From Flavobacteriales bacterium (lineage in GTDB: Bacteria; Bacteroidota; Bacteroidia; Flavobacteriales_F; PHOS-HE28), in NCBI GenBank assembly GCA_019638115.1, contig JAHBUK010000002.1, positions 5,867 through 69,866 on the forward strand: DNA of 64,000 nt, written 5' to 3'. Below are positions 922-52,131 of this stretch, piece after piece (the stretch's first letter is position 1; every line of letters begins with the position of its first letter). Below the pieces are notes generated by a model that did not search any database, was not told where the DNA came from, and saw only the letters and a list, made by a program, of their open reading frames with translations. The translations under genes were made by a program, and so were the position numbers.

Positions 922-1058
922 GTAGTGGCGAGTGGCGAGTATCGAGTGGCGAGTGAATGCCCCCATCAAAAACGTTCGTCACAGGGGCATTCACTCGCCA
1001 CTCGGCGGGCAGACCAGCGCGCGGGCACTCGCCACTCGCCACTCAAGACTCGCCACTA
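922..1058. repeat. composite palindromic element: tandem GTGGCGA heptamers - AATGCCCCC...GGGGCATT core - inverted tandem heptamers
   Basis: The arms gtggcgagtggcgagtatcgagtggcgagtg and cactcgccactcg...cactcgccactcgccactc are seen directly. The same element type recurs at 19075-19185. Confidence 0.75.
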
Positions 1059-3893: not shown

Positions 3894-3906
3894 AGACTTG
3901 CACATC

Positions 3907-5322
3907 ATGCTTATCGGCCGGGAAGAGGAGCGCGACATTCTCCTGGATGCCTTGTCATCCGGGCATTCCGAGCTGATCGCCATCTATGGAAGACGGCGCA
4001 TCGGCAAGACTTACCTGATCCGCGAAGTGTATGCCGGCAAGGTGGACTTCGAGTTCTCGGGCATGCACCGGGGCACGCTCCGGCAGCAGCTCAAGAACTT
4101 CCACCTGGTGCTGCCCGCACGGCTGCGCAAGGGTGGCCCGCCCACCGACTGGCTGGATGCCTTCGCGCTCCTGGGGCGCTACATCGACGGACTTCGAAGC
4201 AAGCGGAAGAAGGTGCTCTTCATCGATGAGTTCCCATGGCTGGACACTCACCGGAGCGGTTTCCTGGCCGCCTTCAGCCACTTCTGGAACGGCTACTGCA
4301 GCAAGCGGAAGGACATCGTGGTGGTGATCTGCGGGTCGGCGGCCAGCTACATGGTGCAGCGCGTGGTGAACAACAAGGGCGGACTGCACAACCGGCTTAC
4401 ACGGCGGATCCGACTGGCACCCTTCAACCTGCGCGAGACGGAGCAAATGCTGCAACACAGGAAGGTGCGGTTCACACGCTACGATATCATACATCTGTAC
4501 ATGGCGCTCGGCGGAGTGCCCTACTATCTGCAACTGCTGAAACGGGGCGAAAGCATGGCCCAGGCCGTCGACCGGCTGTGCTTCCAGCCGCAGGGCTTCC
4601 TGCGTGGAGAGTTCCACAACGTGTTCGCCTCGCTGTTCGACCATGCCGGCAACCACGAGGCCATCGTACGTGCATTGGCCGGTGTGCGCAAGGGCCTCAC
4701 ACGCACCGCCATCCTGCGCAAGAGCAAGGTGTCGTCTGGTGGCACCCTCACCAAGACGCTCAGTGAACTGGAGGAGTCGGGCTTCATAGAGAAGTATGTG
4801 CCCTACGATGCGAAGAAGGACCCGTTGTACCGCATAACGGATGAGTACACGCAGTTCTACCTGCGCCATGTGGAGGGCGGCAAACCGGTAAGGCGCGCCT
4901 ACTGGGCAAAGGAGATGGGTACACCAGCTTATCGGGCTTGGAGCGGATTCACCTTCGAGACCATCTGCATGAAGCATGTGGAGCAGATCAAGGCGGCGCT
5001 GGGCATCCAGGGTGTGCGCTCCACGGAGGGTAGTTGGATCGGCAAGGGCGATGAAAGCGGTGCACAGGTGGATCTGCTCATAGACCGCGACGACAACGTG
5101 ATCAACCTCTGTGAGATGAAGTTCGCGAACGGGCCCTTCACCATCGACAAGAAGTATGCGAAGGACCTGATGGCCAAGAGCGAGGCATTCCGTTCATCCA
5201 CGCGTTCGAGGAAGAGCATCTTCATCACTTTCGTAACCACCCATGGTGTGGCTCAGAACGCGTACAGCAGCCAGTTGGTGCAGAACGATGTGCGCATGGA
5301 GGCTCTTTTCGAGGAGTATTAA
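3907..5322 (+). CDS. AAA family ATPase (Arch_ATPase/ATPase_2 + DUF234-type ATP-binding protein)
   Basis: It has Walker A GRRRIGKT and Walker B VLFIDEF. The overall architecture matches the widespread 'ATP-binding protein' PF01637+PF03008 family. A TTG start at 3898 is an alternative. Confidence 0.8.
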   Translation: MLIGREEERDILLDALSSGHSELIAIYGRRRIGKTYLIREVYAGKVDFEFSGMHRGTLRQQLKNFHLVLPARLRKGGPPTDWLDAFALLGRYIDGLRSKRKKVLFIDEFPWLDTHRSGFLAAFSHFWNGYCSKRKDIVVVICGSAASYMVQRVVNNKGGLHNRLTRRIRLAPFNLRETEQMLQHRKVRFTRYDIIHLYMALGGVPYYLQLLKRGESMAQAVDRLCFQPQGFLRGEFHNVFASLFDHAGNHEAIVRALAGVRKGLTRTAILRKSKVSSGGTLTKTLSELEESGFIEKYVPYDAKKDPLYRITDEYTQFYLRHVEGGKPVRRAYWAKEMGTPAYRAWSGFTFETICMKHVEQIKAALGIQGVRSTEGSWIGKGDESGAQVDLLIDRDDNVINLCEMKFANGPFTIDKKYAKDLMAKSEAFRSSTRSRKSIFITFVTTHGVAQNAYSSQLVQNDVRMEALFEEY

Positions 5323-5368
5323 CCGCAGCCAAATGTGGCATTCAAGAGGCACATTTGGCTGCGGTTAA
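5321..5368. repeat. hairpin repeat copy 3, overlapping ATPase stop codon; lies between convergent genes
   Basis: aaccgcagccaaatgtggcattcaagaggcacatttggctgcggtt has the same stem family. It likely acts as a bidirectional terminator. Confidence 0.7.
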
Positions 5369-5410
5369 TTGGAATGCCATGCGGCACGAGGATTGGTAAA
5401 ATGCGTTTCC

Positions 5411-8623: not shown

Positions 8624-10675
8624 ATGTCCCTCGAAGCCACCGAAAAACGCCAGCTCACCTACGAGCGCGGCAACCACAGCGACGCTTTCCTCATCAGCAC
8701 CTACGAGAAGCTGGTGTACCCGCGCATCATCGAAGAGAAGATGCTGAGCCTGCTGCGGCAGGGCAAGATCAGCAAGTGGTTCAGCGGCATCGGGCAGGAG
8801 GCCATCGCCGTGGGCGCCACCATGGCCCTGCAGGACGACGAGTACATCCTGCCCATGCACCGCAATCTGGGCGTATTCACCACGCGGGGCATGCCTTTCC
8901 GCAAGCTGTTCGCGCAGTGGCAGGGCAAGGCCACGGGCTACAGCAAGGGCCGCGAGCGAAGCTTCCACTTCGGCAGCCAGGAGCACAAGGTGGTGGGCAT
9001 GATCAGCCACCTTGGGCCGCAGATGGGCATCGCCGATGGCATCGCGCTGGCCCACAAGCTTAAGAAGGAGAACCGCTGCACCATCGTCTTCACCGGCGAT
9101 GGCGCCACGAGCGAGGGCGATTTCCACGAGAGCGTGAACGTGGCGGCGGTGTGGGACCTGCCCGTGCTGTTCATCATTGAGAACAACGGCTACGGACTGA
9201 GCACGCCCAGCAGCGAGCAGTTCCGCATGAAGCAGTTCACCGACAAGGCCATCGGCTATGGCATCGAAACGGTACAACTGGCGGGCAACAACATCTTGGA
9301 GGTGTACGACGCCCTGGCGTGGTGGGCCAACAGCGTGCGCGAGAACCCGCGTCCGGTGCTGATCGAATGCATGACCTTCCGCATGCGCGGTCACGAAGAG
9401 GCCAGCGGCACCAAGTACGTTCCCAAAGAGCTGTTCGAGGAGTGGGGCAGGAAGGATCCCGTGGCCAACTACGAGAATTGGCTGGTGGCGACGGGTGTGC
9501 TGACCATTGCCCAGAAGGACGAGATCCGTGCGCGGCTGAAGGACGGCATCGAAGCCGATCTGAAGGTGGCGTTCGAGGAGCCGGAACCGGTGCCGGTGGA
9601 AACCGCTGAGGTTGGGGACGTGTATGCAAATTCCGCCACTGGCCTATTGCCGCTGGCTACTGGCCCCTTGGAGGATCGGGCCAGTAGCCAGCAGCCAATA
9701 GCCATTGGCGAGTCCCGCGAGATCAGAATGATCGACGCCATCCAGGAAGGCATGCGTCAAAGCATGGAACGCCACCCGGAATTGGTGCTGATGGGCCAGG
9801 ACATCGCCGAGTACGGCGGGGCCTTCAAGATCACGGACGGTTTCGTGGAGAAGTTCGGCAAGGACCGGGTGCGCAATACGCCGCTGTGCGAGAGCGCCAT
9901 CCTGGGTGCGGCGCTGGGCCTCAGCATCAAGGGCATGAAGGCCATGATGGAGATGCAGTTCGCCGATTTCGTGAGCGAGGGTATGACCCAGATCTGCAAC
10001 AACCTGGCGAAGATCCATTACCGCTGGGGGCAGCACGCCGATGTGGTGGTGCGCATGCCCACTGGCGCCGGAGTGGGGGCGGGGCCCTTCCACAGCCAGA
10101 GCAACGAGATGTGGTTCGTGAAGACGCCCGGCCTGAAGGTGGTGTACCCCAGCAACCCCTACGACGCCAAGGGCCTGCTGATGACCGCCTTCGACGACCC
10201 GAACCCGGTGATGTTCTTCGAGCACAAAGCGATGTACCGCAGTATCAGCGGACCGGTGCCTGAGCAGCCGTACAGCATACCCTTCGGCAAGGCGCGGGTG
10301 GTGCGCGAGGGCAGCGACCTGAGCATCATCACATACGGAATGGGTGTGCATTGGGCGACGGCCGTGCAGGAGGAGACGGGCATCAGCATGGACATCATCG
10401 ACCTGCGTACGCTCGTACCCTTGGACGTGGAGACCATCCTCGCCAGCGTGAAGAAGACCGGTAAGGTGCTGCTGCTGCACGAGGACACACTGACCGCCGG
10501 TTTCGGTGGCGAGCTGGCGGCCATCATCGCAGAGCAGGCCTTCGAGTACCTGGATGCCCCGATCATGCGTGTGGCCAGCTGGGATACGCCGGTGCCCTTC
10601 GCGGTGCCGTTGGAGCAGGGTTTCCTGCCGAAGGGACGGTTGAGGGAGGCGGTGGAACGGTTGGCGGGGTATTAG
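8624..10675 (+). CDS. fused alpha/beta E1 component of a 2-oxoacid (pyruvate/branched-chain) dehydrogenase, TPP-dependent
   Basis: The N-terminal half is E1-alpha-like (TPP motif region GDGATSEGDFHESVN). The C-terminal half is E1-beta-like (LVLMGQDIAEYGGAFKIT..., FEHKAMYR). This fusion is common in Bacteroidota. Confidence 0.85.
   Translation: MSLEATEKRQLTYERGNHSDAFLISTYEKLVYPRIIEEKMLSLLRQGKISKWFSGIGQEAIAVGATMALQDDEYILPMHRNLGVFTTRGMPFRKLFAQWQGKATGYSKGRERSFHFGSQEHKVVGMISHLGPQMGIADGIALAHKLKKENRCTIVFTGDGATSEGDFHESVNVAAVWDLPVLFIIENNGYGLSTPSSEQFRMKQFTDKAIGYGIETVQLAGNNILEVYDALAWWANSVRENPRPVLIECMTFRMRGHEEASGTKYVPKELFEEWGRKDPVANYENWLVATGVLTIAQKDEIRARLKDGIEADLKVAFEEPEPVPVETAEVGDVYANSATGLLPLATGPLEDRASSQQPIAIGESREIRMIDAIQEGMRQSMERHPELVLMGQDIAEYGGAFKITDGFVEKFGKDRVRNTPLCESAILGAALGLSIKGMKAMMEMQFADFVSEGMTQICNNLAKIHYRWGQHADVVVRMPTGAGVGAGPFHSQSNEMWFVKTPGLKVVYPSNPYDAKGLLMTAFDDPNPVMFFEHKAMYRSISGPVPEQPYSIPFGKARVVREGSDLSIITYGMGVHWATAVQEETGISMDIIDLRTLVPLDVETILASVKKTGKVLLLHEDTLTAGFGGELAAIIAEQAFEYLDAPIMRVASWDTPVPFAVPLEQGFLPKGRLREAVERLAGY
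9635..9708. repeat. imperfect ~30-bp inverted repeat (hairpin) located in-frame in the E1 alpha-beta linker
   Basis: ccactggcctattgccgctggctactggcc ... ggccagtagccagcagccaatagccattgg encodes the linker TGLLPLATGPLEDRASSQQPIAIG. Confidence 0.65.
10601..10675. repeat. direct repeat copy 1 (native 3' end of E1 gene)
   Basis: The 75 bp gcggtgccgttggagcagggtttcctgccgaagggacggttgagggaggcggtggaacggttggcggggtattag is repeated about 90% identical at 11225-11299. Confidence 0.8.
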
Positions 10676-13864: not shown

Positions 13865-14030
13865 GAGAGCCTGTTTAGTATCTCTTCAAACTCGTCCCCC
13901 GGTCTCTTTTCCGCCCATGCTTCGCCGAAAAATGATCCCGTAGGCACCGCTACGCGATGATTTTTCGGTTACGCCTGTACGAAAAACAGCCTCGGGGTCC
14001 ATCGTTCAAGAGATCCTAAACAGGCTCTGA
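13865..14030. repeat. nested inverted repeats in a 520-bp intergenic region (outer tgagagcctgtttag.atctctt.aaac arms ~110 bp apart; inner ccgaaaaatgatc/gatgatttttcgg)
   Basis: It was seen directly. It is a possible MITE remnant or a structured RNA. Confidence 0.4.
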
Positions 14031-17665: not shown

Positions 17666-17710
17666 GGGTGCGAAGGTGGGGAAAGGGGCGAGGGGCGGAA
17701 TGGGCATAAA

Positions 17711-17882
17711 TGAAGAATGAAAAATGTAGAAGGAAAAATGATGAATGAAAGATGCCGGGACCAAGGTGGTGAGCTGAACGGGTCGGTGGATGGATGTCAG
17801 ACTTGGCTTGCGATGGACGGCGCCAGCTTCGCGGGTAGCAGTAGTCACAGTTCTACATTTTTCATTCTACATTTTTCATTGC
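17711..17882. repeat. composite palindromic element (gaatgaaaaatgtagaa arms / ttctacatttttcattc x2 inverted, ~95-bp GC-rich core)
   Basis: It was seen directly between ridA and surE. It has the same tandem-arm/core/inverted-arm architecture as the GTGGCGA elements. Confidence 0.65.
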
Positions 17883-17894
17883 AAGACACGCTCG

Positions 17895-18701
17895 ATGCCC
17901 ACGGATACCTTTGCCCCCGCAATGGAACAACTGCCCCTCATCCTGGTCACCAACGACGATGGCATCTTCGCCCCCGGTATCCGCACCTTGGCGGAAGAGA
18001 TGAAAGCCTACGGCCGCGTGATGGTGGTGGCGCCGGACAAGCCGCAGAGCGCCATGGGCCACGCGATCACCATCCACAGCTTCCTGCGCCTGCAAAGCGT
18101 GGACCTGATGGACGGCGTGGAGGCCTGGAGCTGCAGCGGCACGCCCGTGGATTGTGTGAAGCTCGCCATCTACAAACTCCTCGGTGGCAACAAGCCCGAC
18201 CTGTTGGTGAGCGGCGTGAACCACGGTGCCAACATCAGCATCAACGTACTGTACAGCGGCACCATGAGCGCGGCGGTGGAAGGGGCCATGGAAGGCATCC
18301 CCAGCATCGGCTTCAGCCTGATGGACCACGCCATCGAGGCGGACTTCAGCCAGGTGCGACCCGTGATCCGCAGTGTGGTGGGCAACACCCTGAAGCACGG
18401 CATGGCACCCGGCACCTGCCTGAACGTGAACGTGCCGCGCAACGATGGGATGCCGCTCGCCGGCATGCGCGTGTGCCGTCAGGCCAAGGCCAACTGGGAG
18501 GACGAGTTCGAGACGCGGCTCGATCCCGGCAACAAGGAGTACTACTGGCTGCGCGGCGAGTTCAAGAGCGAGGACCAGGGCCACGACACCGACGTGTATG
18601 CCGTGAACAACCGCTATGTGAGCATCGTGCCCACGCAGTACGACATGACCGCCCACCACAGCATTGCCACCCTCAACACCTGGGACCATGCGCTGGGATA
18701 G
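17895..18701 (+). CDS. surE: 5'/3'-nucleotidase SurE
   Basis: It has the LILVTNDDGIFAPGI N-terminus, which is the SurE signature. Confidence 0.85.
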   Translation: MPTDTFAPAMEQLPLILVTNDDGIFAPGIRTLAEEMKAYGRVMVVAPDKPQSAMGHAITIHSFLRLQSVDLMDGVEAWSCSGTPVDCVKLAIYKLLGGNKPDLLVSGVNHGANISINVLYSGTMSAAVEGAMEGIPSIGFSLMDHAIEADFSQVRPVIRSVVGNTLKHGMAPGTCLNVNVPRNDGMPLAGMRVCRQAKANWEDEFETRLDPGNKEYYWLRGEFKSEDQGHDTDVYAVNNRYVSIVPTQYDMTAHHSIATLNTWDHALG

Positions 18702-18987
18702 TCTTATCGTGGGCCTCGTGCTCGGCCTCATCACCCCGGTGCTGGGCTTCTTCATCTACGGGGCCATCCACGTGAACATCATCCGTCCGCACCTGGACCT
18801 GCCGTACTTCATCCACGACCTGTTCCTGGGCACGCGGGTCTACCAAGCGCCCATCCTCAGCCTGTCGCTGCTGGCCAACCTGCCGCTCTTCTTCCTGCTG
18901 GACCGCTATGTGCTCTACAAGGCCATGCGCGGGGTGATCACAGCGACCTTCATCTACGGCGTGGTCATCGTGGTGCTTTGGATGTGA
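18688..18987 (+). CDS. hypothetical small membrane protein
   Basis: It reads MRWDSLIVGLVLGLITPVLGFFIYGAI..., has three hydrophobic segments, and overlaps the surE stop by 14 nt. Confidence 0.45.
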   Translation: MRWDSLIVGLVLGLITPVLGFFIYGAIHVNIIRPHLDLPYFIHDLFLGTRVYQAPILSLSLLANLPLFFLLDRYVLYKAMRGVITATFIYGVVIVVLWM

Positions 18988-18992
18988 AGGCC

Positions 18993-20219
18993 ATGGGCAA
19001 GCGCATCTACATGATAGCCGGTGAAGCCAGTGGCGACCTCCACGGGGGGAACCTGGTGCGCGAGCTAGTGAAGATGAGTGGCGAGTGGCGAGTGGCGAGT
19101 GAAATGCCCCTTCCAAGGGATGCTGATCCCGGGGCATTACACTCGCCACTCGCCACTCATCACTCGCCACTCATTACTCCTCACGCGCCACTCCGCATCC
19201 GAGCCTGGGGGGGCGATCGCATGGCCGCTGCCGGCGCCGAAGTGGTGAAGCATTACCGCGAGCTGGCCTTCATGGGCTTCACGCAGGTGATCATGAACCT
19301 GCGCACCATCCTCCGCAACATCGAGCAGTGCAAGGAGGACATCGAAGCCTTCAAGCCCGATGCGCTGGTGCTGATCGACTACCCCGGCTTCAACCTGCGC
19401 ATCGCCGAATGGGCGCACGCCAAGGGCATCCCCGTGCACTACTACATCAGTCCGCAGGTGTGGGCCTGGAAGAAGGGTAGGGTGCACACCATCAAAAAAG
19501 TTGTGGACCACATGTACGTGGTGTTGCCCTTCGAGCAGGCCTGGTATGCGCAGTACGGCATGGCGGTGGACTTCGTTGGGCACCCGCTGCTGGATGCGAT
19601 CGAGCACGAAGGCAAGACCCCGCTCCAGCCCCTTCCCGGCGATGATGGCCGTCCGGTGGTGGCCCTGCTGCCCGGCAGCCGTAGGCAGGAGATCGCGCGC
19701 ATGATGAAGCTGATGCGTGCCACCGCGCGCCATTTCCCGGACCACCGCTTCGTGCTGGCCGCCGCGCCCTCCATACCGGACGAGGTCTACGCAGCCCAGC
19801 CCGGCGATCCGCCCGTTACCGTGGTGAAGGGCCGCACCTACGACGTGTTGCGCCACGCCCGCGCCGCGCTGGTCACCAGCGGCACCGCCACCTTGGAGAC
19901 GGCGCTCTTCGGGGTGCCTGAGGTGGTGTGCTACAGCGGCAGCGCCATAAACGTGTGGCTGGCCCGCCGTCTGGTGAAGGTGAAGTACATCAGCCTGGTG
20001 AACCTGATCATGGACCGCGAGGTGGTACGCGAACTGATACAGAGCGAGCTCACCGAGCAGAGCCTGCGTACCGAACTCGCCGCATTGCTGGCGGATGGTC
20101 CCAGGCGCAACACCATGCTCGCCGACCTGGCGGAATTGGGGCGCGTGTTGGGCGGCCCCGGAGCTTCGCGCAAGGTTGCATCGGGCGTGTGGAAAAGTCT
20201 GTTCAGCGCTTCACGCTGA
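18993..20219 (+). CDS. lpxB: lipid-A-disaccharide synthase LpxB carrying a ~37-codon in-frame repeat-element insertion
   Basis: It has the MGKRIYMIAGEASGDLHGGNLV N-terminus and the ...GGDRMAAAGAEVV...ISPQVWAWKKGRV LpxB motifs. Residues WRVASEMPLPRDADPGALHSPLATHHSPLITPHAP are encoded by the palindromic element. Confidence 0.85.
   Translation: MGKRIYMIAGEASGDLHGGNLVRELVKMSGEWRVASEMPLPRDADPGALHSPLATHHSPLITPHAPLRIRAWGGDRMAAAGAEVVKHYRELAFMGFTQVIMNLRTILRNIEQCKEDIEAFKPDALVLIDYPGFNLRIAEWAHAKGIPVHYYISPQVWAWKKGRVHTIKKVVDHMYVVLPFEQAWYAQYGMAVDFVGHPLLDAIEHEGKTPLQPLPGDDGRPVVALLPGSRRQEIARMMKLMRATARHFPDHRFVLAAAPSIPDEVYAAQPGDPPVTVVKGRTYDVLRHARAALVTSGTATLETALFGVPEVVCYSGSAINVWLARRLVKVKYISLVNLIMDREVVRELIQSELTEQSLRTELAALLADGPRRNTMLADLAELGRVLGGPGASRKVASGVWKSLFSASR
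19075..19185. repeat. composite palindromic element (GTGGCGA heptamer family) inserted in-frame inside lpxB
   Basis: gagtggcgagtggcgagtggcgagtg-aaatgccccttccaagggatgctgatcccggggcatt-acactcgccactcgccactcatcactcgccactc is 111 bp, a multiple of 3. Confidence 0.8.
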
Positions 20220-28902: not shown

Positions 28903-30822
28903 TTACCCATTCATCGACACCAAAAACTCCTCATTGCTCTTCGTCCCTTCCATGTGCTTCTTCACGAAATCCATGGCTTCCACGCTGTTCATGTCGGCCA
29001 AGTGCTTGCGCAGGATCCAGGTGCGTTGCAGCACGTCCTTGTGGTGCAGGAGGTCGTCGCGACGGGTACCGCTGCTGAGGATGTCGATCGCAGGGAACAC
29101 ACGGCGGTTGCTGATCTTGCGATCGAGCTGCAGTTCCATGTTGCCGGTGCCTTTGAATTCCTCGAAGATCACTTCGTCCATCTTGCTGCCGGTATCGATC
29201 AGCGCGGTGGCGAGGATCGTGAGGCTGCCGCCGTTCTCGATCTTGCGGGCCGCACCGAAGAAGCGCTTGGGCTTCTGCAGCGCATTGGCGTCCACACCAC
29301 CGCTGAGGATCTTGCCGCTGGCAGGCTGCACGGTGTTGTAGGCGCGGGCCAGTCGGGTGATGGAGTCGAGCAGGATCACCACATCGTGACCGCATTCCAC
29401 CATGGCCTTGGCCTTCTCCAGCACCAGGCCGGCAACTTGCACGTGGCGCGTTGCGGGCTCATCGAAAGTGCTTGCGATCACTTCCGCCTTCACGTTGCGC
29501 GCCATCTCGGTCACCTCCTCCGGACGCTCATCGATCAACAGCACGATGAGGTATACCTCCGGGTGGTTCTTGGCGATCGCGTTGGCCACGTCCTGCAGCA
29601 ACACGGTCTTACCGGTCTTGGGCTGCGCCACGATCAGGCCGCGTTGTCCTTTGCCGATGGGGGCGAAGAGGTCCAGCACGCGCATGCTGAGGTTGGCGCC
29701 CTGCTCCGCGAGGTTGAACTTCTCGTCGGGGAAGAGCGGCGTAAGGAACTTGAAGGGCACACGATCACGCACCCACTCAGGGTCGCGACCGTTGATGCTT
29801 TCCACCTTCACCAGCGGGAAGAACTTGTCGCCTTCGCGCGGCGGACGGACATAGCCGTGCACGGTATCGCCGAGCTTCAGGCCGTACTGCTTGATCTGCT
29901 GCTGGCTCACGTACACATCGTCGGGTGAGGCCAGGTAGTTGTAATCGCTGCTGCGCAGGAAACCGTATCCCTCGGGCATCACCTCCAGCACGCCGTCGGT
30001 CTCCACGAAGGCCTCGAAGTTGATCTGCTCGCGCTGCGGTTGGCGCTCTTGGCGTTCGTTGCGCTGCTGGTCGCGATCATGGCGCCCCTGCTGGTCGTTG
30101 CGGTTCTGCTCGCCGCGCTGCTGTTCCGGGCGTTGCTGTTCGCCGCGCTGTTGGTCGCCGCGGTTCTGCTCGCCACGTTGCTGTTCGTTGCGCGGGCGCT
30201 CGCCTTGTTGTTGCTGATCACGCTGCGGGCGTTCGGGACGGCGTTGGTCGCGGCGGTCGCGGTCGTCGTTGCGCGCGCCGCCTGCCTCGGGTTGTGCAGG
30301 TCGGTCCCCGCGCTGTTCGCGGCGGTCCTGGCGTTGCTCGGGCTGGCGTCGTTCGTTGCGTTGGTCTCGGTCGCGACGCTCGCGCACCGGGGGCGCTTCT
30401 GGTGCATCGGAAGCTTGCGGCAGCTCAGCGGGTGCGGCCTCTTCCTTCACGCTTGAAGCTGGGCGCTCGTCCTCCTCCTCGTCATCGTCGTCATCCTCAT
30501 CATCGTCATCATCATCATCATCGTCGTCATCATCGTCATCCTCATCGGCATTGCTGAAGAGTCCTTCATCCAGGGTGGCGGGTTCGGGATCCTCCTCCGG
30601 CACCACCTCGTCGGCCGTGGCCATTTCGGCTATTGCTTGCTCATCACCCACGAATGTGGGGCCGATCGGTTTTTCGCGGGCCTGGTGCTTCTCCTGTTCT
30701 TCCAGGATCTTGGCGATGAGGTCCTGCTTCTTGAGCGTTTCGGCCTTCTTCAGGTTGAGCGCCTTGGCGATCTCCTTCAGTTCGGCGAGCTTCATGGCGC
30801 TCAATTTCGACTGGTCGTACAT
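28903..30822 (-). CDS. rho: transcription termination factor Rho with large disordered N-terminal insertion
   Basis: It has the N-terminus [24 protein letters not shown]. It has a poly-D/E tract followed by an RQ-rich repeat region. The C-terminal RecA-like ATPase has [15 protein letters not shown]. Confidence 0.9.
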
Positions 30823-38496: not shown

Positions 38497-38640
38497 GGTG
38501 AATGGGAGTTGGTGAATGGCGAATGGGAAGTGCCGTCCCGCGATCATCAACCTCGCAACCTGTGCGACATCGTAGGCATTTCCCATTCACCACCTCCCAT
38601 TCATCACCTCCCATTCACCAACTCCCATTCACCATTCGCC
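38497..38640. repeat. composite palindromic element (GAATGGGAG nonamer arms, inverted CTCCCATTC arms)
   Basis: gggtgaatgggagttggtgaatggcgaatgggaag...core...catttcccattcaccacctcccattcatcacctcccattcaccaactcccattcacc has the same architecture as the GTGGCGA family. Confidence 0.7.
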
Positions 38641-38682
38641 TGTTCATTCACCTCTCCACCAACCAGCACCCCTCAACCAACC

Positions 38683-47703: not shown

Positions 47704-48573
47704 TTATCCTGGCAACGGCACCCACTCCGTCTCCCCCTCGATCTTCGGGAAATCCTGCGCCATCCAACGTTGACGCGCTTCCTCGATGGTGGCGCGCTCG
47801 GTAGCCACGAAGTTCCAGTGGATGTGGCGATCTTCAGGGAAAGGCTCACCGCCAAAGAGGAACACACGTGTGCCCGGCTCCAGTGTGAAGGCGCACAAAT
47901 CGGGGTTCTTGGATACCAGGATCTGCTTGGGGCCAAAGCGCTCGCCATCGTTAACGATCGCGCCTTCCAGGATGTACAGCCCCGACTCCCCGAACAACTC
48001 CTTGCCGATCTCCAGCGTGCTCCGTTCCGTGCTTTGGATGTCGAGGAAGTAGAGCGGGCTGTGTACCGGCACGGGTGAGCGTTTGCCGAATGCTTCGCCG
48101 GCCACCAATGTGATGCGCACACCATCCTGCTCCCAGGTGGGCAGTTGGTCCTCACCCGCATGGAAGAAGGAGGGCTCCATGAACTCCTTGTCCTTGGGCA
48201 GCGCCACCCAGATCTGCAATCCGTGCATGCCTTTGGGTTTGCCGCGCAGGTGGTCCGGCGTGCGCTCGCTGTGTACGATGCCCTTGCCGGCCGTCATCCA
48301 GTTCACCTGCCCGGGCTTGATCTCGATCGCCGTGCCCAGGCTGTCGCGATGCATGATGCTGCCCTCGAAGAGATAGGTCAGCGTGCTCAGGCCGATGTGC
48401 GGGTGCGGCGGTACGTCGAAGTCGGTGCCGTCGGTGAACTCCACCGGGCCCATGTGGTCGATGAAGCAGAACGGCCCCACCAAGCGCTTCTTGCGAAAGG
48501 GGAGAAGTCGCCCCACCAGGAAATTGCCGATGTCGGCTTCGCGCTCCTCGATGATCAGGTCGATGTTGGACAT
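47704..48573 (-). CDS. pirin family protein
   Basis: It has a cupin with HPHIGLSTLTYL and the ...MHGLQIWVALP motif. Confidence 0.85.
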   Translation of the reverse strand: MSNIDLIIEEREADIGNFLVGRLLPFRKKRLVGPFCFIDHMGPVEFTDGTDFDVPPHPHIGLSTLTYLFEGSIMHRDSLGTAIEIKPGQVNWMTAGKGIVHSERTPDHLRGKPKGMHGLQIWVALPKDKEFMEPSFFHAGEDQLPTWEQDGVRITLVAGEAFGKRSPVPVHSPLYFLDIQSTERSTLEIGKELFGESGLYILEGAIVNDGERFGPKQILVSKNPDLCAFTLEPGTRVFLFGGEPFPEDRHIHWNFVATERATIEEARQRWMAQDFPKIEGETEWVPLPG

Positions 48574-48589
48574 GGGGGAAGGTGTGATG

Positions 48590-48870
48590 ATGTGAAAATG
48601 TGAGGATGTGTTGCTTCGCTTTGCTTCGGCAAGCCTCGCAATGACGGCTCGCAATGACAAGATGTGGAGATGTTTTGCTTCGCTGAGCTCGCAATGACAG
48701 ATGTGAAGATGAGAACGCTTCGACTTCGCTCAGCGTTGTGTGTTGCTTCGCTTCGCCTCCCGACAAGCAGGCTCGCAATGACAGATGTGAAGATGGGATG
48801 ATGTGTTGCTTCGCTGCGCTCGCAATGACAGATGTGAAGATGGGATGATGTGAAGGAGTAGGGGGCGGTG
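48590..48870. repeat. intergenic tandem repeat array (~47-bp unit GATGTGAAGATGGGATGATGTGTTGCTTCGCTGCGCTCGCAATGACA, ~5 variable copies)
   Basis: It was seen directly between the pirin start and the peptidase stop. Confidence 0.75.
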
Positions 48871-49693: not shown

Positions 49694-49860
49694 GGCGGTG
49701 CCAAGGTATGTGCAGGACGGAACCCCGTGGACGACCTGGGGCGATGGGCATTGGACCATGGCTTGGTGAAGGTCGGAAGGTTGCTCGCCGATCGCTGTGC
49801 ATAACCGATGCGTAGCACCGCTTGATCATCCGAAGGCCAGCCGATACTTTCGTGCCGCCC

Positions 49861-51090
49861 ATGGGATCCATCAAGGTCGTAGAGCTCTTTGCCGGTGTTG
49901 GCGGCTTCCGCATCGGGTTGCAGCGTGCTAGTGATCGCTTCAGCGTGGTATGGAGCAACCAATGGGAACCGGGCACCAAGCGGCAACCAGCATCGGAGAT
50001 CTATGCGGCGCGTTTCGGGCATCAAGGCCACAGCAATGCCGACATCGCCACGGTGCATGCCAAGGAGATACCCAAGCACGATCTATTGGTGGGTGGTTTC
50101 CCCTGCCAGGATTACTCCGTTGCTCGCACGCTGAAACAGGCCGAAGGGCTTGCTGGCAAGAAGGGCGTGCTGTGGTGGGAGATCCACCGCATTCTGAAGG
50201 CACACACTCCTGGCCATGTGTTGCTGGAGAACGTTGACCGGCTACTGAAGTCGCCATCCACCCAACGCGGTCGTGACTTCGCCGTGATGCTGGCTTCCTT
50301 GGCCGATCTCGGCTATGTGGTGGAGTGGCGCGTGATCAATGCTGCGGACTATGGCATGCCGCAGCGTCGTCGCCGCGTGTTCATTCTGGGGCATCACAAA
50401 AGCACGGCCATCGGCAAACAAATGCTGAAGCTGAAGAACGCCGAGACGTGGTTGTTGGAGGACGGCATCTTCGCGGATGCGTTCCGTGCGACGGCCAAAA
50501 GCACGCTTTGCACGTTCGAGTTGAAGGGTGATCTGGCTGATATCACCCAGCGCTTCAACCACGACAAGCGGAGCGCGAAAAGCCCCTTCCTGAGCACCGG
50601 ATTGCTGGTGAGCCGCACGGTGCATACCATGGATGTGAAGCCCTCGTACGCGGGTACCTTCACCACGCTTGGCGAGATCCTGCTGCCGAGCAAGGACGTG
50701 CCCAAGACCTTCTTCGTGCCCGCCACCAAAGTGCGGGGATGGAAGTACCTGAAAGGTGGAAAAAAGGAACTCCGCACCAATGCCAGCAACGGGTTCAGCT
50801 ACAAGTACAGCGAGGGCGCCATGGCCTTCCCCGATCCGCTCGACAAACCCTCGCGCACCATTGTTACCGGCGAAGGAGGAAGCGGTCCATCGCGCTTCAA
50901 GCATGTGGTGCGCACGCCCGAAGGCAAGTTGCGCCGCTTGACACCCGTGGAATTGGAACGCCTCAACATGTTCCCGGACGACCATACGGCCGGTGCCAGT
51001 GATGCGCGTCGCGCCTTCTTCATGGGGAACGCGCTGGTAACGGGTATCGTGGAGCGTATCGGTTCCGTGTTGCAAGCAAGGCTGAAGTAG
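49861..51090 (+). CDS. dcm: DNA (cytosine-5)-methyltransferase
   Basis: It has motif I ELFAGVGGF, motif IV GGFPCQDYS, motif VI ENV, and the C-terminal RRLTPVELERLNMFPDDHT / FMGNALV. Confidence 0.85.
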   Translation: MGSIKVVELFAGVGGFRIGLQRASDRFSVVWSNQWEPGTKRQPASEIYAARFGHQGHSNADIATVHAKEIPKHDLLVGGFPCQDYSVARTLKQAEGLAGKKGVLWWEIHRILKAHTPGHVLLENVDRLLKSPSTQRGRDFAVMLASLADLGYVVEWRVINAADYGMPQRRRRVFILGHHKSTAIGKQMLKLKNAETWLLEDGIFADAFRATAKSTLCTFELKGDLADITQRFNHDKRSAKSPFLSTGLLVSRTVHTMDVKPSYAGTFTTLGEILLPSKDVPKTFFVPATKVRGWKYLKGGKKELRTNASNGFSYKYSEGAMAFPDPLDKPSRTIVTGEGGSGPSRFKHVVRTPEGKLRRLTPVELERLNMFPDDHTAGASDARRAFFMGNALVTGIVERIGSVLQARLK

Positions 51091-51219
51091 GCTCCAGCAC
51101 TGGCGGTAGGCGCGAAGGCCACGGCACGGCTGTTCCGCTCCGCGCACTTCACACGCCGTGGTTGATGGTCGTTCACTACCGTGGCCGTCTTCTCCGTTGC
51201 GTGCTCGGAACTTAGCGCC

Positions 51220-52131
51220 ATGGAATGGCAGCGGGCGATCACCGACTTCAGGATGCATCTGAAGCTCGAGCGTTCCTTGAGCCAGCGCACGGTGGATGCC
51301 TACCTCAGCGACCTCGCCAAGTTGCGTCGCTTTGCAGAGGCCATGCAGCCGGTACACCAGCCGGCGGAGATCACGCTGGAGGAGCTTCAACTCTTCGTGA
51401 CCCAGGTGGTGCGCGATGGTGCCAGTGCCACCAGCCAAGCCCGTTTGCTCAGCTCGGTGCGTGCGTTCTACCGCATGCTACTGATCGAGAAAGTGGTGCA
51501 GGAGGATCCCTCCGAACTGCTCCAAAGCCCGCGCCTGGGGCGTAAGTTGCCTACGTTCCTTACGGTGGAGGAGATCGATGGGATGGAGGCCGCTGTGGAC
51601 ATGAGCCGGGCCCATGCGCACCGTGATCGCGCCATTCTGGCCACGCTCTACAGCTGCGGACTTCGGGTCAGTGAATTGTGCGGGCTGCGCTTGTCATGGC
51701 TTCACTTCGATGCCGGCTTCATCCGCGTGGTGGGCAAGGGCGACAAGGAAAGACTGGTTCCGATAGGACCGGATGCCATGCAACAGATCAGGCAGTACGT
51801 GGAGTTGGAGCGGGTGCATGCCCCCTTGCAGCGCAAAGCGGAGGATGTGGTGTTCCTCAACCACCGCGGGGGTGGGCTATCGCGCGTGGCGGTATTCTCG
51901 CTGGTAAAGAAGCTGGCCGTTCAGGCAGGCATTCGCAAGGTGATCGGGCCGCATACGTTCAGGCATTCCTTCGCCACGCATTTGGTGGAGCGCGGTGCCG
52001 ATCTGAGGGCCGTACAAGAGATGCTCGGCCATGCCAGCATCACCACCACGGAGATCTACACGCACTTGGACCGGGAGTATCTGCGAAGCAACATCATGCA
52101 GTTCCATCCCCGCGCCAAAGCGCGCAGCTGA
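51220..52131 (+). CDS. xerD: tyrosine site-specific recombinase XerD-like
   Basis: It has the R...HxxR...Y catalytic residues (HTFRHSFATHLVERGADLRAVQEMLGHASITTTEIYTHL). Confidence 0.8.
   Translation: MEWQRAITDFRMHLKLERSLSQRTVDAYLSDLAKLRRFAEAMQPVHQPAEITLEELQLFVTQVVRDGASATSQARLLSSVRAFYRMLLIEKVVQEDPSELLQSPRLGRKLPTFLTVEEIDGMEAAVDMSRAHAHRDRAILATLYSCGLRVSELCGLRLSWLHFDAGFIRVVGKGDKERLVPIGPDAMQQIRQYVELERVHAPLQRKAEDVVFLNHRGGGLSRVAVFSLVKKLAVQAGIRKVIGPHTFRHSFATHLVERGADLRAVQEMLGHASITTTEIYTHLDREYLRSNIMQFHPRAKARS

Follow-up and report, generated by a model that had tools for sequence, protein, structure and literature searches.

Rickettsia palindromic elements (RPEs), as far as they are summarized in a review (Ogata et al. 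2000, 2002, reviewed in PMC10969869), are about 150 bp long, fall into ten families and lie in-frame in many unrelated Rickettsia genes in a manner compatible with protein structure. Heptameric repeats are over-represented in many bacteria and have been little studied; the heptamers GGGAATC of Xanthomonas and GGGGAYT of Nostoc form inverted pairs (Rehm et al. 2015, PMC4692102), and TAACTGA heptamers are found in Beggiatoaceae, in Cyanobacteria and in a small number of Bacteroidetes (MacGregor 2015, PMC4679880). [quoted passage not shown] Repetitive extragenic palindromes (REPs) carry a terminal GTAG or CGTC tag (PMC3733652) and, together with BIMEs and REPINs, are mobilized by RAYTs, which are Y1 HUH transposases (PMC3733652, PMC3116915). 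[quoted passage not shown] PARCELs are coding repeats of palindromic form that code in either orientation (PMC2996958). Here we describe a palindrome built from 7-base units at positions 19076-19193 of a 64,000-nucleotide (nt) stretch of a Flavobacteriales genome (contig JAHBUK010000002.1; the whole stretch is called the window), where it lies within the gene lpxB. We consider it likely that this palindrome is one copy of a dispersed, nonautonomous, probably selfish palindromic repeat that is tolerated in a permissive loop of LpxB in the way RPEs are tolerated in their hosts. It is best named a heptamer-array palindromic element and not filed as an RPE, REP or MITE.

The palindrome spans 118 nt between lpxB codons 28 and 67 (parts in Table 1). 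An earlier note on this DNA had described a composite repeat element at 19075-19185 that added about 37 residues without breaking the frame; the sequence was as described, its ends are now placed slightly wider, the open reading frame (ORF) is uninterrupted, and the estimate of its size was close (34 codons more than in an insert-less ortholog, with 43 versus 9 residues between ...REL and IRAWGG, and 41 residues in place of 6 in Escherichia coli LpxB). The two inverted arms (19076-19110 and 19131-19165, 35 nt each) are 91% complementary, and the final unit of the right heptamer arm overlaps the conserved native P-L codons of lpxB. Predicted folding energies were -79.7 kcal/mol for RNA (z -11.6) and -49.9 kcal/mol for DNA (z -11.4), with 0 of 200 shuffles as stable in either case. 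The 12-mer GAGTGGCGAGTG (at most 1 mismatch) occurred 14 times in the window against 0.61 expected (0 shuffles reached 14), and 13 of these 14 matches fell within two elements, the lpxB copy and an intergenic copy at 922-1058. No Rfam family was found in the window at gathering thresholds, and a permissive scan of the window returned only sub-threshold matches to generic microRNA hairpins; neither an intrinsic terminator nor a sigma-70 promoter was found in 18600-19600, which also held no terminator-like T tract. An intein, an intron and programmed bypass were each considered and rejected, as the approximately 34 extra residues come without a splicing domain, an Rfam intron match, a stop or a frame break.

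Table 1. Coordinates (window positions) of the host gene, the parts of the lpxB element and its relatives.
Feature	Position	Strand	Context or basis
lpxB coding sequence, 408 aa + stop, element host	18993-20219	+	ORF; PF02684; LpxB homologs at 70-91% identity; E. coli LpxB; AlphaFold2 model; Foldseek
Left arm, GAGTGGC x3.7 tandem heptamers	19076-19101	+	Tandem Repeats Finder (TRF) period 7, 100% matches; inverted-repeat arm; encodes ..SGEWRVAS
Left core GAGTGAAATGCCCC (family core GAGTGAATGCCCC + one A)	19097-19110	+	
Locus-specific loop ttccaagggatgctgatccc, 20 nt, small internal 5-bp stem	19111-19130	+	
Right core GGGGCATTACACTC (family core GGGGCATTCACTC + one A)	19131-19144	+	
Right arm, ~7.7 GCCACTC-phase heptamers, degenerate toward 3' end	19140-19193	+	TRF periods 7/14/21; encodes HSPLATHHSPLITPHAPL
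Second family copy	922-1058	+	Intergenic, between divergent DUF6702 gene (minus) and M1-peptidase-like gene (plus)
Heptamer arms of second copy	923-955, 1026-1058		
Loop of second copy	964-983		
Extra segment of second copy	1005-1025		
E1 palindrome, units GCCACTG / GCCAGTA	9634-9710	+	In-frame, fused 2-oxoacid dehydrogenase E1 alpha-beta, residues 338-363
In-frame GAGTGGC copies, MenD-like enzyme			Anaerolineae
In-frame GAGTGGC copies, LeuRS			Caldilineaceae
In-frame GAGTGGC copies, AnmK, DnaE, HisRS			Acidobacteriota
In-frame GAGTGGC copies, MutL, HypF			Ardenticatenaceae

With RPEs the lpxB element has in common a palindrome of about 100 to 150 nt with a long hairpin and no evident transposase or target duplication; several families, moreover, occur both between genes and in-frame in surface segments of unrelated housekeeping genes (translation being deduced here from the frame). 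The interpretation given in the earlier note was supported in every part open to testing, and the resemblance that it suggested was borne out by in-frame families that recur in the loops of unrelated housekeeping genes and by a filled and empty pair of rsgA alleles (see below). It differs from RPEs in that its arms are tandem 7-nt units, that only arms and cores are kept while loops are locus specific, that the heptamer unit is spread over many phyla, and that the host is a free-living Flavobacteriales lineage of 61% G+C rather than a reduced intracellular genome. The likeness is one of mode of working: the element works like an RPE and is not classed as a member. Tandem 7-nt units, and related units in distant phyla, are shared with Xanthomonas-type heptamer pairs and the STRR heptamers of cyanobacteria, and the lpxB element likewise consists of two convergent tandem heptamer arrays on opposite strands; GAGTGGC, however, has no G3-4 tracts, is combined with conserved nonheptamer cores and lies in-frame in essential genes. 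REPs and REPINs are similar in being short, G+C-rich hairpins of a high-copy, nonautonomous kind that make no target duplications and are often placed as inverted pairs downstream of genes, but REPs are extragenic, 20 to 40 nt long and tagged, whereas the lpxB copy is intragenic and no GTAG/CTAC or CGTC/GACG tag was found in 19070-19196 (in the 922-1058 copy GTAG occurs only as part of a variant heptamer); no RAYT was present among the 50 window ORFs. MITEs and PARCELs are likewise small inverted-repeat elements readable as part of a host ORF. MITEs, in contrast, have insertion sequence (IS)-related terminal inverted repeats and target-site duplications, neither of which was seen in the lpxB and rsgA elements, and no IS was found among the 50 window ORFs; PARCELs build tandem repeat domains of surface proteins, whereas the lpxB element is a single insertion into an enzyme loop. 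The literature searched held no description of the GAGTGGC unit, its peptides or in-frame palindromes in Flavobacteria, as had been supposed for this lineage.

The family would follow the plan (GAGTGGC)n, GAGTGAATGCCCC, a roughly 20-nt loop, GGGGCATTCACTC and (GCCACTC)n. The copy at 922-1058 had been called near identical to that in lpxB; it exists, and its arms and cores match, but its 20-nt loop is unrelated to the lpxB loop and a 21-nt nonheptamer segment interrupts its right arm. Its inner stem, which holds the cores (943-963 and 984-1004, 21 nt), is 100% complementary, and the whole copy folds at -97 kcal/mol (z -11.3). A metagenome scan with the pattern GAGTGGCGAGTG[N]AATGCCCC returned 15 loci, 7 of which were chance matches in one conserved gene and 8 of which were true elements, on contigs of 58-68% G+C. 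When these elements were combined with the two copies of the window and with L077, a GTDB Flavobacteriales locus, essentially invariant cores were seen at six or more distinct loci: identical cores were present at window positions 951 and 19097 and in L077, L130, L131, L135, L140 and L144, each locus having its own loop. The loops measured 18 to 22 nt and were kept only between orthologous loci (L077, L130 and L140). Intergenic relatives of the element lay directly after stop codons or beside promoter-like TAnnTTTG boxes. In a search for empty sites of intergenic copies, BLASTN comparison of 18 element loci with the window and with the lpxB or E1 loci of relatives revealed no common flanks. 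Judged by sequence, the lpxB copy resembles this dispersed core family more than it resembles its own orthologs, which gene conversion through the heptamer arms would explain.

The gene that hosts the element is open throughout its ORF (18978-20219, plus strand), and the start that matches its homologs is the ATG at 18993 (MGKRIYMIAGEASGD...). E. coli LpxB (5W8N/5W8S) matched the window protein at an E value of 1.9e-45, with residues 5-26 aligned to residues 9-30 of the E. coli enzyme and residues 68-382 to its residues 37-361, and the motifs GEASGD, IDYPGFN, LPGSR and SGTATLE, invariant in an alignment of 40 relatives, were all present. Outside the insert, the window gene and its closest ortholog (L122) differed at 4.4, 1.6 and 10.1% of first, second and third codon positions, respectively, a pattern that indicates purifying selection. 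On these grounds lpxB is intact and functional, and not the pseudogene that had been allowed for. The AlphaFold2 model had a mean predicted local distance difference test (pLDDT) score of 84.7, and its top Foldseek matches were E. coli LpxB structures (5W8S, 5W8X and 5W8N, with 5W8S closest). When the insertion was mapped on this model, it fell in a low-confidence loop (residues 36-58, pLDDT <50) between the helix at 11-28 and the strand at 67-73; the extra residues, in the surface loop between helix alpha-1 and strand beta-2, are nonconserved and predicted to be disordered. In Rossmann-like domains the helix-to-strand connection sits on the edge opposite the substrate cleft, and the LpxB insert would thus point away from the catalytic cleft. 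With neither a stop nor a frame break in its path, the ribosome must translate through the element; its translation with the host protein, which we infer from the intact frame only, would yield the tryptic peptides VASEMPLPR and DADPGALHSPLATHHSPLITPHAPLR from the read-through region.

The history of the insert was followed in the 120 best LpxB relatives (70-91% identity), in which the loop was measured from ...REL to IRAWGGDRM. Loop length ranged from 8 to 89 residues: 65 relatives had at most 14 residues, 24 had 15 to 25 and 31 had more than 25, so that 55 were expanded (>14). DNA was compared for eight relatives (metagenome-assembled genomes [MAGs] and contigs from NCBI, ENA, JGI and Logan), and the gene order ridA / surE / small ORF / lpxB / spoIID was kept across those examined. 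A palindrome was present at the same two lpxB junctions in 7 of the 8 (L122-L128), folding at -43 to -141 kcal/mol; the common junctions were, on the left, the G of the codon before AGT and, on the right, ...GCCACTC followed by NNN ATC CG. The remaining relative, L129, had no insert and only TTCGCCGTGGCCGATGCGCCCTTGCAG (FAVADAPLQ) at this place. The largest insert was that of L127 (328-1677; P0089), a 449-residue LpxB with an 89-residue loop, three 57-nt and five 15-nt repeats (LANSP) and a fold of -141 kcal/mol. These sequence comparisons indicate that the LpxB insertion is not private to this genome: it is an old one, orthologous across several related MAG lineages. The view that the extra loop is specific to a lineage was supported, with loops of 6 to 14 residues found in E. 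coli and many Flavobacteriales relatives; the heptamer unit, for its part, occurs in more than 10 phyla. Orthologs with an equivalent segment were found to carry palindromic DNA there, and not a peptide segment free of repeat-like DNA.

Remodeling was rapid between the window and L122, for which the rest of lpxB was 94.6% identical and the inserts were 78.7% identical with 27 gapped columns; between L122 and L124 the rest of lpxB was 73.2% identical and the inserts were 91.2% identical without gaps. A palindrome center GAGTCTG...CAGACTC was common to L122, L123, L124 and L125, and in its place the window has the AATGCCCC cores. As far as alignment can tell, whole blocks (units and center) are gained, lost or replaced in frame-preserving steps. 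As a separate matter, the same loop was expanded by (GA)n dipeptide runs (QASGAGAGAGALQ) in P0037, P0039-P0041 and LpxB proteins related to these, in some cases together with another insert; the LpxB loop generally acts as a hot spot of repeat growth. The idea that the hairpin apex (DADPG, LDPD) is left over from the native loop was considered and set aside.

Other genes of the clade carried in-frame palindromes as well. In the window, the palindrome of the fused E1 gene (Table 1), a different heptamer-type palindrome and the second in-frame case there, makes up exactly the linker between the E1_dh (31-323) and Transket_pyr (366-539) domains and folds at -55.4 kcal/mol (z -6.4). Across 120 relatives this linker was hypervariable (32 to 65 residues) and contained several palindrome-peptide families; an ortholog at 85.8% identity kept a hairpin (-57.6 kcal/mol), another had a different hairpin (-45.1 kcal/mol), and pairwise comparison of the linker hairpin showed 1 compensatory pair. 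In rsgA, an in-frame GAGTGGC hairpin was found in a GTDB Flavobacteriales locus, and the RsgA loop between HTTTYAEMFEL and PTFIIDTPGI varied from 13 to 66 residues among 120 relatives. A filled and an empty rsgA allele differed by one 78-nt palindromic block and were 91.5% identical at the nucleotide level elsewhere. Four families of palindrome-encoded peptides recurred in loops of the unrelated genes for LpxB, RsgA and fused E1: EWRVAS...SPLATRHSPL was common to RsgA and LpxB, and PLATGP...SSQRP, VVSSQLSV...TDNQQLTT and EPLATSHELEASGSKLAA were common to RsgA and the E1 linker. Each of six cross-gene peptide comparisons (E1 linker, RsgA loop and LpxB loop) scored above all 2000 shuffles. In other Flavobacteriales MAGs, in-frame GAGTGGC arrays were also present in PyrD and LD-carboxypeptidase (Pfam confirmed).

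Taken as a dispersed selfish repeat, the element would have inserted into lpxB a single time, in an ancestor shared by a group of Flavobacteriales lineages, and would later have been remodeled by frame-preserving heptamer slippage, internal deletion and, probably, gene conversion from other genomic copies. Its persistence could be due to a unit that lacks stop codons in all six frames and to an alpha-to-beta connection that faces away from the catalytic cleft, and it would bring no benefit to LpxB, being selfish or neutral DNA like RPEs. Several observations weigh against this reading. Neither the lpxB junctions nor the rsgA filled/empty site showed a target-site duplication, no defined termini of the element could be recognized, and no transposase (IS200/IS605 type or other) or RAYT (Y1_Tnp) was found among the 50 window ORFs, in which the sole recombinase-type genes are those for a C-5 cytosine DNA methylase and, beside it, an XerC/D-like tyrosine recombinase (49822-52128). 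A transposed unit would not usually have unrelated loops between cores that are identical. In a neighbor-joining tree of 121 sequences (70-91% identity, no support values) insert-bearing and insert-less LpxB proteins interleaved, and these sequences do not distinguish a single gain followed by many losses from several gains at one hot spot. The strong conservation of the arms could instead reflect a function, and the native A-P-L codons GCG CCA CTC at the right junction themselves contain the heptamer unit, so that local seeding is possible. The hairpin form, together with the lack of a target-site duplication and of a transposase, would point by analogy to copying by a single-strand hairpin route (REP/RAYT-like) or by recombination through the heptamer arms.

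The native codons are also the starting point of an account without mobility, in which slippage expands GCCACTC-like codons, template switching at the resulting quasi-palindrome makes the inverted arm, and similar elements arise independently since the heptamer is slippage prone. Heptamers are reported to be the most over-represented long simple repeats in many bacteria, and polymerase slippage has been proposed as the reason (Mrazek 2007 via PMC4679880; PMC4692102). Such an origin would suit the variation of unit number among orthologs, one of which has the three 57-nt and five 15-nt repeats noted above, the orthologous ridA-surE spacers with their genome-specific heptamer palindromes, and the finding that the heptamer alone, and not the cores, is common across phyla. 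It does not readily produce 13-nt nonheptamer cores (AATGCCCC/GGGGCATT) that are identical at at least six unrelated loci, or four palindrome-peptide families that recur in unrelated genes, and it is at odds with a whole 78-nt element that is present or absent between otherwise closely similar rsgA alleles and with the L122 and L124 inserts, which are far more alike (91%) than the genes that carry them (73%). We regard a purely local origin as unlikely.

The conservation of the arms bears on a second alternative, namely, that the hairpin is selected as an RNA or DNA signal in the surE-orf-lpxB operon (acting in mRNA stability, as a processing site or as a translational brake) or as a binding array for a heptamer-binding protein, with the peptide as a by-product. 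Third codon positions varied at 1 of 20 sites in the arms between L122 and L124 and at 3 of 20 among three sequences, versus 43% and 60%, respectively, in the rest of lpxB; the arm sequence thus appears to be held at the nucleotide level, by selection or by homogenization. In the consensus structure of the lpxB hairpins, 15 of 86 paired columns varied versus 13 of 28 unpaired columns, and among the three orthologs that could be aligned without gaps, two double-sided changes kept pairing and several changes were one-sided, which is suggestive of compensatory evolution but not decisive. A signal of this kind would also accord with the extreme fold, with the retention of the hairpin in every insert-bearing ortholog and with the REP-like placement of the intergenic relatives after stop codons or by TAnnTTTG boxes. 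However, in about half of the related LpxB genes the insert is missing or reduced, center and loop were swapped between genomes whose lpxB genes are 94.6% identical, the hairpin matched no Rfam family above threshold and has no terminator-like T tract, and element families occur in unrelated genes at positions alike only in their structural permissiveness. A cis-acting function is, on this balance, rather improbable, and the dispersed selfish repeat remains the preferred reading.

LpxB is a peripheral membrane enzyme, for which surface loops could matter, and the insert persists in several lineages; the inserted peptide might accordingly give the enzyme a new property, such as a membrane or partner contact, with the palindromic DNA incidental. 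The peptide, however, is hypervariable in length (8 to 89 residues) and sequence and has a predicted disordered state, it is the nucleotide sequence, synonymous sites included, and not the peptide that is conserved, and the same peptides occur in unrelated enzymes, all of which makes an adaptive loop very improbable. Least likely is an assembly chimera or a decayed gene, for even if the source is a MAG and repeats are prone to misassembly, an independent Logan assembly encodes the identical LpxB protein, orthologous inserts occur in MAGs and contigs from four collections, the ORF is intact with a pattern of purifying selection, and the unit is also present in complete isolate genomes.

Beyond the clade, the 19-mer GAGTGGCGAGTGGCGAGTG was found in at least 120 GTDB stretches versus about 4 expected by chance under uniform composition, which is a poor null for tandem repeats. 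The carriers among the matches listed, at least 120 species, belonged to more than 10 phyla, Planctomycetota, Acidobacteriota, Chloroflexota, Verrucomicrobiota, Proteobacteria, Cyanobacteria and Bacteroidota among them, and the inverted partner CACTCGCCACTC lay within 200 nt in 28 of the 120 matches listed. Cultivable carriers of GAGTGGC hairpins include isolates of Brevundimonas and Pirellulaceae. In-frame copies flanked by Pfam domains on both sides were found in ten further genes (examples in Table 1), and a hybrid histidine kinase had two in-frame copies; coding-region copies amount to the lpxB copy and at least 12 others. Across phyla the heptamer alone is common and the cores differ; by its distribution in sequence collections, the heptamer unit is not lineage specific. 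A search of 1.84 billion protein representatives with the 41-residue insert, a query too short for counting copies, gave 12 matches at an E value of ≤0.001, mostly spurious ORFs across arrays; ORFs that are largely SPLATRH or SPLTTHH repeats, i.e., translated heptamer arrays, have entered public collections (P0361, P0362, P0365, P0366 and P0372).

GAGTGGC is stop-free in all six frames and, since 7 and 3 are coprime, any frame gives the same cyclic peptide (EWRVASG or, in the other orientation, ATRHSPL). Half of all heptamers, and 74% of G+C-rich heptamers, are stop-free as well; the property is so widespread that it is permissive rather than special. Each of the purely intergenic units of the window (AATGAAG, GGTGAAT and AATGTAG) contains a stop.

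GAGTGGC-class heptamer-array hairpins might even constitute one coherent, hitherto unrecognized, coding-compatible family across many phyla, which a shared sequence-specific mechanism (a dedicated enzyme or host factor that recognizes 7-nt units on hairpin DNA) generates or maintains and which would routinely enter essential genes in-frame (LpxB, RsgA, DnaE, LeuRS, HisRS, MutL and HypF); this is a tentative and still doubtful proposal. If it is true, the RPE phenomenon is general in bacteria and a widespread source of new protein loops. In-frame colonization of housekeeping genes by palindromes, treated mainly as a peculiarity of Rickettsia, is met here in a free-living, G+C-rich Flavobacteriales clade, with an element that is differently built (tandem heptamer arms, conserved cores and locus-specific loops) and whose GAGTGGC unit occurs in-frame in essential genes of five or more other phyla. 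Should the elements be mobile, they would continually and quite generally supply bacterial enzymes with disordered loops and linkers, would mark structurally permissive sites and would confound ortholog alignment and annotation. The filled and empty alleles and the many MAGs make the copying mechanism directly testable.

Further repeats were observed between genes. In all relatives examined, the ridA-surE spacer had a heptamer palindrome, the units of which differed from genome to genome. In the window, palindromes or arrays of other 7- to 8-nt units lay at 17708-17880 (AATGAAG/TTCTACATTTTTCA), 38497-38650 (GGTGAATGGGA/TCCCATTCACC) and 48570-48860 (GAAGATGT, together with units of about 40 nt). 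A shared "SART" core for all heptamer units was considered and dropped, as the units CATGTGN and GATGTGA of relatives do not fit it. A TAnnTTTG box (TACCTTTG), which we take to be the Bacteroidetes -7 promoter consensus, was present at 1058-1072 and at 17906-17924; the latter ends 8 nt short of the start codon of surE and closely follows the palindrome there. This placement suggests very short leaders and palindromes that abut promoters. In the orthologous elements upstream of a lipB-like gene in L131 (4140) and L135 (712), the 7-mer CGAACGA was found on one side of the loop in one locus and on the other side in the other, as would be expected had recombination between the arms inverted the loop.

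Elsewhere in the window, nested palindromes at 13866-14028 (24-nt arms, 92% complementary, around an imperfect palindrome with 48-nt arms) lay in the spacer that separates an OmpA-family gene from a Cons_hypoth698 gene and had no Rfam match. A perfect 20-bp hairpin with a 12-nt loop at 5318-5369, possibly a terminator, overlapped an ATPase gene (3898-5322) at its end. Sorting domains of type IX secretion were present among the window proteins. In the gene for the Rho termination factor (28906-30822, minus strand), Rho_N (7-46) was separated from the RNA-binding domain (276-349) by an inserted segment of some 230 residues, which contained 15-, 30- and 60-nt tandem repeats (30088-30204) and an acidic TCGTCA/TCA tract (30467-30551).

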